From NCBI GenBank assembly GCA_033764955.1, contig JANRIL010000006.1, positions 49,710 through 113,709 of the forward strand: a stretch of 64,000 nucleotides of DNA, in the 5' to 3' direction. The notes beneath the pieces are model-generated. The model worked only from the letters and a program-made list of their open reading frames with translations. It was not told the origin of the DNA and did not search any database. Positions 52,963 to 56,581 of the stretch are shown here, in pieces. Position 1 is the stretch's first letter; each line of letters starts with the position of its first letter. The position numbers and the translations under genes were made by a program. This stretch comes from Cyanobacteriota bacterium. Its GTDB lineage: Bacteria > Cyanobacteriota > Cyanobacteriia > Thermostichales > Thermostichaceae.

Positions 52963-53103
52963 AGTTTTTTGACGGATTCGCAGTCATCTATAATAACAGC
53001 TTTGCCTAAGATTTTTCTAGAAGCTGCTCAACTCCAACAGACTCAGAGTGGACTCAGGTTGCCAGAGTAGAATGTCATCGACCGTTTGGGATCCCCCGTC
53101 ATC

Positions 53104-53742
53104 ATGAGTTTCACCCTTTATTTTTTGCGCCACGGCGAAACCACCTACAGTGCCAAAGGAGTCTACTGTGGATCTTTGGATCCCGATCTGACGGAGCAGG
53201 GTCAAGAAATGGCCGAGTCCTTTGCTGAAGCCTACCAAGGGATCCCTTGGTCAGGGGTGTTTGTCAGCCCCATGAAGCGCACGGTGGCCACGGCTCACCC
53301 CCTCTGTAATCGTCTGGGGTTACCCATGCAGATTCGCTCCGGTCTAAAGGAAATCGCCTATGGAGCCTGGGAAGGGCTGGCTCCTCACGAGGTGAATCAA
53401 TCGGATCACGATCCTTACATTCGTTGGCTAGCGGATCCAGGCTGGAATGCCCCCACTGGGGGAGAACGCGCCATTGATATTGCCCAACGCTCAGCTCAGG
53501 TGATTCAGGAGATTCAGCAGCTCTGCCCTGAGGGATCCGTTTTGGTAGTTTCCCACAAAGCTACCATCCGCATTATGCTCTGCCACCTGCTGGGCATTGA
53601 TGTGGGACGATTCCGGGATCGGATCGCTATGCCTGTTGGTTCTGTCAGCATCGTCAGCTTTTTGGAACATGGCCCGATTGTGCGCGCCATCGCCGACCGT
53701 GCCCATCTAGCTGAGCATCTGCGAACCCGTCCCGGCAATTAA
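53104..53742 (+). CDS. histidine phosphatase family protein
   Basis: LRHGET, SPMKRT, LKEIAYGAWEG, VVSH. Confidence 0.92.
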   Translation: MSFTLYFLRHGETTYSAKGVYCGSLDPDLTEQGQEMAESFAEAYQGIPWSGVFVSPMKRTVATAHPLCNRLGLPMQIRSGLKEIAYGAWEGLAPHEVNQSDHDPYIRWLADPGWNAPTGGERAIDIAQRSAQVIQEIQQLCPEGSVLVVSHKATIRIMLCHLLGIDVGRFRDRIAMPVGSVSIVSFLEHGPIVRAIADRAHLAEHLRTRPGN

Positions 53743-53761
53743 GCGGTAGGGGTGGGGGCTA

Positions 53762-53777
53762 GGGTCTGTCATCAATT
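53762..53777 (+). mobile_element. solo MITE/IS terminal inverted repeat (left end)
   Basis: TA|GGGTCTGTCATCAATT, similar to both ends of the element at 54709-54838. Confidence 0.7.
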
Positions 53778-53875
53778 CCATAACAACTGCGTTCACTTGC
53801 CAAACTGCCTGCAAGGAAGGCGATGTCTTGAAAAAACGTGGTGCTAGCTCGGTCAAGTGCAAGGCTTTGTTAGCC
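53778..53875 (-). mobile_element. attC: integron attC recombination site (98 bp)
   Basis: Minus strand R'' GGCTAAC, AAAGC, L'' CTTGCACT, TGACC...GGCA, L' AGTGAAC, GCAGTT, R' GTTATGG; two unpaired bases; the gene stop codon lies inside R''. Confidence 0.82.
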
Positions 53876-54448
53876 TCCCGTCGCCGCCTTTCGGGCAGAA
53901 CTGAGTCGGTCACGGGAGGCATCATCTGTTTCGTCGTGGTCGGCGCACATGGTGGCAAAGTCCGGTGTTCGTGCCAAATGATTCAGAACGCTTGATTCTT
54001 CGATTTGAACCAGTACGCGACAGGCCATGACCATGAACTGTTCACAGACCGATTCGTCCTCGTTGCGTGCATCTTCAATTTTCGTGCGAATCGGATTCCA
54101 ACCCTTTCGCCACTCATTCCAACGATTGATATTTCGGTAACCCCAGTCGCCAGGCGACCATCGGAGTTTTTCTTCAATCTCGGCCACAGTCTCTCTCGCA
54201 TACAAGTCGGGAGGCACTGCCGATCCCCGAATACTCTGCAAGTCATTCTTGTAGGTTTCGGCTCTATGGCGGAGTAGTGCGGGCGTATTCAAGCATAGGT
54301 TCACTTCGCCGTAGTTTGAGTCGCAATCTAGAAAAAGGCCGTAGAACTCCTCAGATCGATGCTGAGGGGCAAATGCTTCAATATCATCCCACACCAGAGC
54401 AAAAAGTGTTGCCTGAATAGGTCGCCAATCAATCATGGGGACAACCAT
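53870..54448 (-). CDS. DUF4303-like protein carried as an integron gene cassette
   Basis: EEFYGLFLD, LCLNT, LRWSPGDWGY, HDE pattern; flanked by attI-like and attC sites. Confidence 0.75.
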   Translation of the reverse strand: MVVPMIDWRPIQATLFALVWDDIEAFAPQHRSEEFYGLFLDCDSNYGEVNLCLNTPALLRHRAETYKNDLQSIRGSAVPPDLYARETVAEIEEKLRWSPGDWGYRNINRWNEWRKGWNPIRTKIEDARNEDESVCEQFMVMACRVLVQIEESSVLNHLARTPDFATMCADHDETDDASRDRLSSARKAATGG

Positions 54449-54457
54449 TATTTAGGA

Positions 54458-54476
54458 AGCTAACTGAGTATTAGAC
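54458..54476 (-). mobile_element. attI: attI-like simple site
   Basis: Minus strand L box GTCTAAT, 5 bp ACTCA, R box GTTAGCT, ending 9 bp before the cassette ATG. Confidence 0.65.
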
Positions 54477-54593
54477 AGCCAAACGCAGTTTAATACCCCT
54501 CTAATGTATATTAGGCCTGCGAGATCTATGCCATAACACCCCGATTTAGTGTTTTAGATGGCAAAGCTCAGCCATTTTCTAGAAGTAACCTCC

Positions 54594-54708
54594 ATGGCGT
54601 CACCGCCTAAGATTCCCAAAAAGCTGGTTAGAGACAGCAAGGATAGTCTCTACAATCATTGAACGTTAGCTCAGGATGCTATCCCGTGTGGATAAACCAT
54701 CATTCCTA
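54594..54708 (+). pseudogene. possible degraded 5' fragment of an integron integrase gene
   Basis: MASPPKIPKKL / LETAR / YPVWI across frameshifts, divergent from attI and cut by the MITE. Confidence 0.4.
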
Positions 54709-54838
54709 GGGCGCGTCATCAATTCGTTCTAGAAGTCTAGTCTTACAGCATAAGCGTTATTGCGCCCGCCCCAGAAAACAGGCTAGGGGCTGAAACAACT
54801 GCTCTATCAGTAACCTACAGCTAATTGATGACACCCCC
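54709..54838. mobile_element. 130-bp MITE with 16-bp imperfect TIRs and TA flanks
   Basis: TA|GGGCGCGTCATCAATT ... AATTGATGACACCCCC|TA (14/16 complementary); non-coding. Confidence 0.78.
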
Positions 54839-56469
54839 TAAGGCAAGACGGAAAGAGCCAGTTCCCCTGAGAGTGAGGCTAGCGGGGATCCCTCGACAGT
54901 CTGCATATCCTGTTGCAAAACAGCCACCAGTTGGTTGGTGGAAACCTCATATACCTGAGTCATCAGCTTGGGATAAAGACCAATCCCCACAATGGGGATA
55001 AGCAGACAGGCAATGATAAACACTTCGCGGGGTTCCGCATCAATCAAGGCTTCGTGCTCGGTTAACTCATGATTTTCGGGGCCAAAGAAAATTTGCCGCA
55101 ACATCGACAGCAAATAGATCGGAGTCAGGATCACTCCCACCGCCGCCAAAAAGACCATCGCCACCTTAAAGGGGCCACTGTAGGCATCACTGGTTGCCAT
55201 CCCCAAAAACACCATGATCTCCGCCACAAAGCCACTCATCCCCGGTAGCGCCAGAGAAGCCAGGGAGCAAACGGTAAACATCGAGAAGATCTTGGGCATT
55301 TTTAGGCCAACTCCCCCCATTTCCTCCAGTTCTAGGGTATGGGTGCGGTCGTAGGTGGCTCCCACCAAGAAAAAGAGACTGGCTCCGATTAGCCCGTGGG
55401 AGATCATCTGCAACATCGCTCCACTCATGCCAATTTCTGTCAAACAACCCATACCAATCAGGACAAAGCCCATGTGGCTAATCGACGAATAGGCAATCTT
55501 CCGCTTGAGGTTGCGCTGAGCAAAGGAGGTAAGTGCCGCAAAAATAATATTGACCACCCCCAAAACAATCAAAACGGGGGCAAAGATCAAATGGGCATCC
55601 GGTAACATCCCCACATTCATCCGCAGCAGGGCATATCCCCCCATTTTGAGAAGGATGCCAGCCAGCAACATGTGAACCGGAGCCGTTGCCTCGCCGTGGG
55701 CATCCGGCAACCATGTGTGCAGAGGAAAAATGGGCAATTTCACCCCATAAGCCACCAAAAAGCCCCCATACACCCATAGCTGAAAGACGAGGGGATAGGA
55801 CTTTTGGGAGAGCAGCGTCATGTTAAAGCTAATGGTGTCGCCATAAAAGGCCATAGCCAACGCCGCCACCAAAATAAACAGAGAACTGAGAGCGGTGTAG
55901 AGAATGAACTTGGTAGCGGCATAAAGGCGGTTTTTGCCCCCCCAAATCGACAGCAACAAATAGACTGGAATCAGTTCCAGTTCCCACATTAAGAAAAACA
56001 GCAACATATCCTGAACGGCAAAAACCCCAATCTGACCGCCATACATCGCCAACATCAGAAAGTAAAAAAGGCGGGGCTTCCAGGTAACAGGCCAAGAGGC
56101 CAGGATTGCCAGGGTGGTAATAAATCCGGTCAACAGAATCAAGGGCATCGACAAGCCATCCGCTCCTACCGACCAACTCAATCCGACCTGGGGCACCCAG
56201 CTATAGGTTTCCACCAGTTGCATTTCACTCTGGCCAGGATCATAGGCAACATAATAGCCGGCTACCAAAATCAGCAGATCCGTAATGCCGATCACTAGTG
56301 CAAACCAGCGAATCCGCTCGGCTAACTTTTGGGCATACGCGCGGCTCTGGGGATCCCCGGCAGGAGCCGGGATCAAGGGGATAAACAGAGACGCCACAAC
56401 GGGATAGAGAATCACCGTCGTCAGCCAGGGAAACTCACTCAGGGGTATCGGGAAGTCCATAAAAGCCAT
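54838..56469 (-). CDS. ndhD: NAD(P)H-quinone oxidoreductase subunit 4 (NdhD1-type)
   Basis: [50 protein letters not shown]. Confidence 0.95.
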
Positions 56470-56581
56470 CCTTCGGTTCAGTCTGCTCCGTTCACACACT
56501 CACACAAACTTTTACACACTATTCACACAAGACTCAGATTGCCTCATCTTGATTCCGATTGGGCCGCATTCCAAGCATCTC

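Follow-up and report, generated by a model that had tools for sequence, protein, structure and literature searches.

In the 64-kb window of cyanobacterial DNA analysed here (the whole stretch, G000:C7:49710-113709), a 1.08-kb unit at 53760-54840 is probably a non-autonomous copy, deleted for the integrase gene intI, of an integron platform whose outer boundaries are the terminal inverted repeats (TIRs) of an IS5-family insertion sequence (IS). The genome, G000, measures 3.8 Mb in an assembly that is 89% complete; C-numbers below designate its contigs, G-numbers other genomes and L-numbers extracted loci. The unit lies in the ~1.1 kb of DNA that separates a histidine phosphatase gene from an ndhD-like gene and consists of three TIR copies, an attC site, a gene cassette of 680 bp, a junction of attI type and a MITE (miniature inverted-repeat transposable element) of 130 bp. 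Between the repeats there are a minus-strand open reading frame (ORF, 53870-54448), a 98-nt stretch from the stop codon of this ORF to the left repeat and about 250 bp of non-coding DNA. An original prediction, which read the locus as a miniature decayed integron enclosed by MITE ends, had listed six components; five are present where it placed them, and the sixth, a supposed scrap of integron integrase (IntI), is real sequence under a wrong name.

The ends of the unit form an inverted pair. The left repeat (TIR_L, 53760-53777, + strand) matches the right outer copy (54823-54840, reverse orientation) in inverted arms of 18 nt that are 89% complementary, and both begin with TA; the outermost repeats face each other and abut TA, as had been proposed. 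A third, inner copy (54707-54724, forward orientation), which also begins with TA, is the MITE's own left TIR, and the right outer copy closes both the MITE and the whole unit. TIR_L and the inner copy are direct copies of each other (53759-53778 versus 54706-54725, 85% identical). The MITE (54707-54840) has TA on both sides and inverted arms of 26 nt (54707-54732 and 54815-54840, 81% complementary) enclosing 82 nt; it is short, non-coding and related to an autonomous IS, and as a whole it occurs once in the genome. The 10-nt core of the TIR is found 17 times in the 3.8 Mb, 3 of these within this 1.08 kb.

Comparison with other genomes reveals the source of these repeats. Of 400 other genomes sampled from the cyanobacterial phylum, 79 contain the TIR pattern, with up to 78 copies per genome, while matches to a reversed-pattern control are rare. 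Elsewhere the repeats are paired either ~110-130 bp apart, as MITEs, or ~840-900 bp apart, as elements of ~860 bp; an 860-bp IS in G262 and 110-130-bp MITEs in G424, G226 and G224 share the TIR, which upholds the complete MITE predicted at 54709-54838. One locus of the ~840-900-bp class (L152) encodes DUF4096 (PF13340) and DDE_Tnp_1 (PF01609) domains in interrupted frames. By homology, the TIRs are the ends of an IS5-family IS with a DUF4096 + DDE_Tnp_1 transposase and of its MITEs, and both ends of the unit at 53760-54840 are such repeats. Around the copies of other genomes stand CTAG- or TTAG-like sequences, which we take to be the YTAR target that one IS5 subgroup (IS427-like) uses with duplication of TA; at the outer ends of the window unit the TA stands within C-TA-G and C-TA-A. 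An origin from IS630/Tc1-mariner (DDE_3) elements was rejected, the IS630-type genes of G000 carrying different ends. The TIR is strongly amplified in G424, G110, G190, G282 and G252 (78, 27, 23, 9 and 8 matches), and many of the matches in G190 and G282 are placed ~110-190 nt from the end of a contig, suggesting that assemblies are broken there by an IS/MITE family that is, or recently was, active.

Immediately inside TIR_L lies the attC site (53778-53875, minus strand; R' 53778-53784, R'' 53869-53875), whose R' box passes without a gap into the repeat's inner edge. In G000, about ten places have the left repeat together with the seven bases after it, and a GTT-type box stands ~95 nt further on in each. 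An nhmmer profile of eight such sites detected 61 attC relatives at E<0.05 in the genome, and a covariance model of 37 sites, from which the window copy was left out and whose calibration is rough, detected 80 attC sites genome-wide at E<=0.01. RNAalifold gave no consensus for 10 or for 37 sites, because indels shift the register, and the structure was written by hand from the alignment and tested by pair counts. In the 37 sites the canonical R and L stems are 80.6% paired, compared with 30-47% when the partners are slid by 1-3 columns, double-sided changes occupy 111 cells compared with 31-49, and none of 500 shuffles reached the observed values. Since pairing and double-sided changes exceed both the slid and the shuffled controls, the stems represent real structure, and these recurrent sites are attC sites. 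They form arrays on the expected strand beside intI, on C9 (1687, 2529, 4230, 4997, 5677, 6458, 7849 and 8381) and on C38 (61742, 57852, 54711 and 54047).

The window attC was the best match of this model in the 64 kb (53775-53882, minus strand), at a weak 20 bits (E 0.021); all other matches in the window had E>=1.6, and the unit holds a single attC. The site has the R''/R' boxes, paired L stems and extrahelical base known from the integron literature, and it is homologous, over its full extent, to the attCs of the DUF4303 cassettes from metagenomes described below. In the three attCs that can be aligned, 7 of 7 L-stem pairs are kept, with three compensatory changes and a bulged A, a comparison of three sequences only. 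The model score would not be sufficient by itself; together with this homology, which is the decisive evidence, top rank in a model built without the site sustains the predicted attC. A scan of 53000-55500 against Rfam returned two chance-level rows only, with no attC match.

The cassette itself extends over 680 bp, from one G|TT crossover to the other (53784-54463, minus strand), and encodes a DUF4303 protein (53870-54436, minus strand; Pfam PF14136, E 4.8e-7, 30 bits, cut-off 23). The likely start codon at 54436 gives 188 aa and an upstream ATG at 54448 gives 192 aa. As the likely start lies only 27 nt from the cassette edge, the cassette leaves no space for a promoter and the gene lacks one of its own; a promoter scan found nothing promoter-like facing the cassette (one site in all, 1.2 expected), and the description of the ORF as promoterless holds. 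No relative of the ORF was found in 300 other cyanobacterial genomes; among 5.8 billion clusters eight matches were detected (38-100% identity), seven of them at 38-74% and all of these on short contigs, and six metagenome contigs encode 65-77% identical proteins. In the soil-metagenome loci L189-L193, where the ORFs are 67-77% identical, the attC is shared with the window cassette. Similarity sets in at G|TTAGCTTCC, immediately upstream of the ORF, and runs on through the ORF and the entire attC as far as the GTT of the R' box, and the ten bases after the crossover are identical in L189, L190, L191 and L192. Upstream of the crossover stand other attCs, at 31.7 bits (E 3.7e-6) in L189 and 21.4 bits (E 0.0012) in L190. 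As both limits of the similarity coincide exactly with the G|TT crossovers, the window cassette is, judged by its sequence limits, a true mobile cassette of 680 bp with the predicted boundaries. The region upstream of the crossover in L192 was considered as an independent attI and rejected: an unrelated ORF lies there, and no intI. Sharing of this cassette with soil metagenomes shows that very different habitats exchange cassettes. The DUF4303 protein had no sequence match in NCBIfam, PADLOC or PDB, and its structural model is good (pLDDT 86.7), with no fold match in the PDB at E<=0.001.

On the other side of the cassette, the boundary at 54463|54464 reads AAC| on the + strand (G|TT on that of the cassette), and the DNA beyond it belongs to the platform. 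This platform comprises a leader (54464-54559) and a non-coding stretch (54560-54708, + strand). A second copy exists on C12, where C12:14181-13941 is 89% identical to window 54467-54710 and runs into its own TIR_R, the reverse repeat copy that ends the flank. They part exactly at the AAC| junction, on the far side of which C12 has other DNA and a different cassette, and the C12 platform heads an array of three attCs (16497, 18161 and 19389). AAC| junctions are also found in the C38 and C9 lineage. The junction looks like a putative attI crossover point, which agrees with the attI-like site proposed at 54458-54476. A palindromic motif near the attI of the C38/C9 lineage (an inverted pair of the type GTATACGG...CCGTATA) is conserved beside intI in several other cyanobacteria; it was seen at L049 8345-8400, in L050 (C9) at about 1160-1200, and in L080, L095 (threefold), L115 and L118; one of these cyanobacteria is a Tumidithrix record that is 76% identical over 152 bp. 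These repeats may be putative IntI binding sites.

The stretch at 54560-54708 is homologous (BLASTN, ~68%) to C4:185-342 and C30:523-387, where it directly follows the intI stop codon; here the intI ORF is missing. The segment 54594-54708 had been read as an IntI-like scrap. It corresponds to this non-coding DNA after intI and not to coding debris, and an IntI remnant was rejected on testing 54540-54710: BLASTP of the ORF at 54558-54662 gave E 0.5-0.8, and DNA alignments to the 5' regions of intI did not rise above shuffles. The flank ends in TIR_R in one register on C4, C12, C11 and at two places on C28, and this register is kept in six copies. The flank on C11 and C28 directly adjoins a short intI 5' stub, and the gene is absent altogether from the window and C12 copies. 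No signal for the integrase profile TIGR02249 was found on the window contig at E<=10, and the adjacent intI of a complete integron is lacking.

Elsewhere in the genome intact integrases exist. At the TIGR02249 (NCBIfam) cut-off of 265 bits, two intact integron integrases were identified, at C9:19-960 (463 bits) and C38:63588-64529 (451 bits); protein P0001 scores 451 bits as an integron integrase. The suggestion that an IntI is encoded elsewhere is thus borne out. Broken intI copies occur on C36, C4, C30 and C38, and four copies lie at contig ends, as expected of a repeated gene. The copy on C36 (L052, 180-860) is a more divergent pseudogene of 253 bits with two TAG stops, at the start of its contig and without flank or TIR_R. 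Within the same order, integrases match in 15 of 29 other genomes at E<=1e-40, 12 of them above the cut-off.

These copies bear on the possibility that the ~400-bp TIR-bounded element of the window and C12 type never contained intI, an outside IntI having put a cassette at the GTT beside the left TIR. The window unit has no intI remnant, and its leader (54464-54559) has no detectable similarity to the region upstream of intI on C38, C9 and C11, as this alternative would have it. It is nevertheless very improbable given that 54560-54708 is homologous to DNA directly after intact or broken intI on C4 and C30, that the intI 5' stubs joined to the same flank on C11 and C28 are the expected intermediates of an internal deletion, and that the C12 twin heads a three-attC array.

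The TIR/attC fusion is not confined to the window. In 9 of the 61 attCs the inner edge of the TIR comes immediately after the R' box, each time with a different outside flank: C4:15477, the window, C11:33870, C23:45350, C27:18822, C27:112628, C38:64696, C30:1915 and, in degenerate form, C43:30475. At all nine sites unique DNA starts exactly at the outer end of TIR_L, with the attC on the inner side. The entire order, TIR-attC-cassette-attI-flank-TIR, recurs at C11:33764-37955 and partly at C30:2028-366, with the platform half on C12, so that the integron order and orientation claimed for the window find a counterpart among real integron parts of the same genome. The C11 unit contains both TIRs, two attCs, minus-strand cassettes including a PIN/Phd pair, attI, an intI stub and the flank; its TIR_L lies two bases after the modA stop codon and its TIR_R end supplies the stop codon of the next gene. 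In both complete units (window 54838-54840; L040 5452-5454) the TIR end with its TA serves as the stop codon of the minus-strand gene next to it. With a target of the YTAR type, insertion into TAG/TAA stop codons would be favoured.

Other fused sites lie in varied surroundings. On C27 (L044, 7819-7930), a lone attC with TIR_L is found ~280 bp after ccmO, with ccmM, ccmN and BMC-domain genes upstream; it is an orphan end with no platform inside. The TIR_L-adjacent cassette on C23 (L043, 1358-2620, minus strand) encodes a 421-aa Beta-lactamase family protein (PF00144, E 9.6e-58), and the next cassette encodes an NYN-domain protein. On C38 (L049, 9675-9805), six bases after the TIR_R of the intact integron, an attC and a TIR_L stand in the opposite sense; there one element appears to have inserted into, or recombined with, the end of another.

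A different account of the nine junctions is that a decayed chromosomal integron has unrelated IS5-type MITEs on either side and that the junction arose in a single old insertion next to an attI and then spread by duplication or attC x attC exchange, not by transposition of the entire unit. The right end of the window unit is indeed a separate complete MITE, and several of the TIR_L + attC pieces are short orphans beside core genes, such as the one after ccmO on C27. A simple MITE insertion does not give the observed fusion, however, because a MITE landing in the R' box would put its outer end next to the attC. Moreover, the exact start of unique DNA at the outer TIR_L end at nine sites, the inward-facing TIRs at both ends of the window and C11 units with the neighbouring genes' stop codons left intact, and the single register of flank and TIR_R in six copies all speak against this account, which we regard as unlikely.

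Several observations weigh against a TIR-bounded platform, and some of them are what an integron beside unrelated MITEs would predict. No transposase with these TIRs was found in the 89%-complete assembly, and the nearest IS5-like transposase gene of G000 is 40% identical and has other ends; the search for an intact intI together with a TIR-matched transposase, as proposed by the original prediction, thus succeeded for the integrase and failed for the transposase. TIR_L was not found at the distal ends of the C9 and C38 arrays beside intact intI, and no copy with an intact intI has both ends. Ends and platforms could have been parted by exchanges between the attCs of different arrays, and the short orphans would then be explained as well. 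The initial TA has been lost from four or five of the nine TIR_L copies. The intact intI copies carry another attI than the window/C12 type, and an intact integrase to go with the latter was not seen. At 20 bits, the window attC falls below the 80 genome-wide matches at E<=0.01, and its folding energy does not exceed that of shuffles (bottom strand z -1.46, family median about -0.9), a score that fails to separate this attC family from shuffles and is uninformative either way. In addition, neither TIR nor flank was found beside IntI in 80 loci of other genomes, and the TIR/R' junction motif was detected only in G000 among 400 genomes of the phylum and 29 of its order; the flank, too, was absent from every other genome searched, and one assembly is all that has yielded the family. 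Finally, no empty site was found. The relatives compared for synteny all belong to other genera at ~80% nucleotide identity; the phosphatase gene is not beside ndhD in any of 19, and the proposed comparison of this interval yielded no empty site; modA is not beside the right-flank gene of C11 in any of 14.

The right boundary of the unit admits a variant that would leave the core of the TIR-bounded platform reading unchanged, namely that the MITE is nested in the element's flank at CC|TA|GG, the element passes 54840 and the last ndhD codons are element-derived. Homology of the flank is broken exactly at a CTAG-like site, and beyond the MITE lie 35 nt (54839-54873) similar to what would continue the flank, a resemblance reached by 4 of 2000 random segments in a post hoc test of something first seen by eye. 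A 72-nt version of the test was weaker (53 of 2000), nhmmer with a profile of five flank ends had no match at 54841-54910, and the host palindrome GGGATCCC lies at 54885. The final codons also look native, relatives in genus g6 ending ndhD with ..LLP, like ..VLP here. This variant is doubtful, and we favour a MITE that nested in the flank of the progenitor and whose distal TIR was used for the jump, with ndhD intact.

A unifying model for the TIR-bounded platform would be as follows. Along the + strand, the full design would comprise TIR_L, the right half of attI, the intI promoter region, intI, a non-coding flank of ~290 bp and TIR_R. IntI would insert circular cassettes at attI, and these would accumulate between TIR_L and attI; the attC of the oldest cassette would end in an R' box that is joined to TIR_L at its inner edge, because the right half of attI would originally abut the TIR. 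In the window copy, intI would have been deleted whole, with one cassette left and a 130-bp MITE of the same family serving as the right end. The unit would have been brought to the TA of a YTAR-type target, the ndhD stop, by an IS5-family transposase that worked in trans on its outer TIRs, and an IntI acting at this attI would have loaded the cassette. Movement of the unit and present-day cassette capture are what we infer from this arrangement, and the window copy itself is probably inert now. More tentatively, the family may represent an IS5-family IS whose transposase was replaced by a complete integron platform, its attI against one TIR and its intI towards the other. This would be a compact, helper-dependent 'transposable integron' that seeded at least nine sites of the chromosome with modules for cassette capture and with their decayed descendants, might remain active wherever a suitable transposase and IntI occur, and gained its mobility independently of the Tn402, Tn7 and MITE-pair routes of Proteobacteria.

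Class 1 integrons of the Tn402/Tn5053 type are bounded by the repeats IRi and IRt, and many lack the tni genes and are moved in trans. As in the unit described here, one repeat lies just past intI at its 3' end and the other beyond the array, and defective copies need a helper. Tn402/Tn5053 elements differ in their transposase family, in a 5-bp duplication and in a tni module between array and IRt, whereas here the last attC directly abuts the TIR. Mobile insertion cassettes (MICs) consist of IS-type TIRs around passenger genes, without a transposase. They share with this unit the IS-derived TIRs, cargo in place of the transposase and small size; here, however, the cargo is a gene-capture platform (attI with or without intI) whose content can be changed by site-specific recombination, and no MIC with an integron platform as cargo was found in the open-access literature searched.

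MITE-mobilised integrons, which the original prediction had cited as known in Proteobacteria, are described in Acinetobacter, where class 1 integrons are flanked by identical MITEs (PMC10969869; PMC3934969). In these cases the integron and its cassettes lie between inverted-repeat elements that lack a transposase and are thought to be moved in trans, as here. In those proteobacterial cases two complete 439-bp MITEs flank, and once truncate, a Tn402-like integron, whereas in G000 single 18-nt IS5-type TIRs are built into the platform, an attI half-site touches the TIR, copies are multiple in one chromosome and some lack intI. The unit works like the MITE-flanked and Tn402-bounded integrons of Proteobacteria, yet is a member of neither.

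IntegronFinder distinguishes chromosomal integrons, In0 elements and clusters of attC sites without integrase (CALIN), and 20% of integron-bearing genomes have more than one integrase (PMC4889954). G000 likewise has complete integrons and attC clusters without integrase, as described in the accessible part of that paper, which does not mention terminal inverted repeats. With one attC and no intI, the window locus lies below the default CALIN definition of at least 2 attCs without a nearby intI. Cyanobacteria are among the phyla listed there with integrons (PMC4889954), so the claim of novelty in this lineage has to be narrowed: integrons as such had been reported, and what is new, as far as the open-access literature shows, is an integron platform inside IS ends, present in multiple copies in one cyanobacterial genome together with integrase-less miniatures.

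Mobilisation of sedentary chromosomal integrons is known almost only from clinical classes in Proteobacteria. In this environmental cyanobacterium the platform sits in IS ends, and its copies range from intact integrase with arrays to integrase-less stubs. If the unit moves, integron mobilisation arose repeatedly and by simple means, and the scattered single attCs and CALINs of genomes receive an explanation. Such a unit would also provide a 1.1-kb natural substrate (TIR, attI, one cassette, attC, TIR) for both cassette recombination and IS5-type transposition.

The core genes on either side lie outside the element. On the left, the histidine phosphatase family gene (53086-53742, + strand) matches Pfam His_Phos_1 (E 6.3e-56). 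On the right, the ndhD gene, encoding an NDH-1 subunit D-like protein (54838-56499, minus strand), matches Proton_antipo_M (E 2.9e-63) and has 76-88% identical counterparts in 19 relatives; its TAG stop codon (54838-54840) shares bases with the TA at the right TIR end.

No RNA run was listed among the sequencing runs that contain the locus; a small share of it is present in one DNA run, X1, labelled as a hot springs metagenome. One X1 contig of 246 nt is 100% identical across the left junction (53574-53819); the run is possibly the source sample, so this match is perhaps not independent. Neither an empty site nor a joint across the cassette or the element was found in this run. Contigs of X1 stack on the TIR region (window 54653-54739, summed word depth 388), and one omits the MITE interior (joint 54724 to 54819); this stacking and the omission mean that related MITEs with other interiors are abundant in the sample.

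The palindrome GGGATCCC noted downstream of the unit occurs 4915 times in G000 (1293 per Mb) compared with 109 occurrences of GCGATCGC, and appears to be a HIP1-like hyper-abundant palindrome variant. Besides the copy at 54885, it is found at 53088 and 53239 of the window and also within copies of the intI flank.

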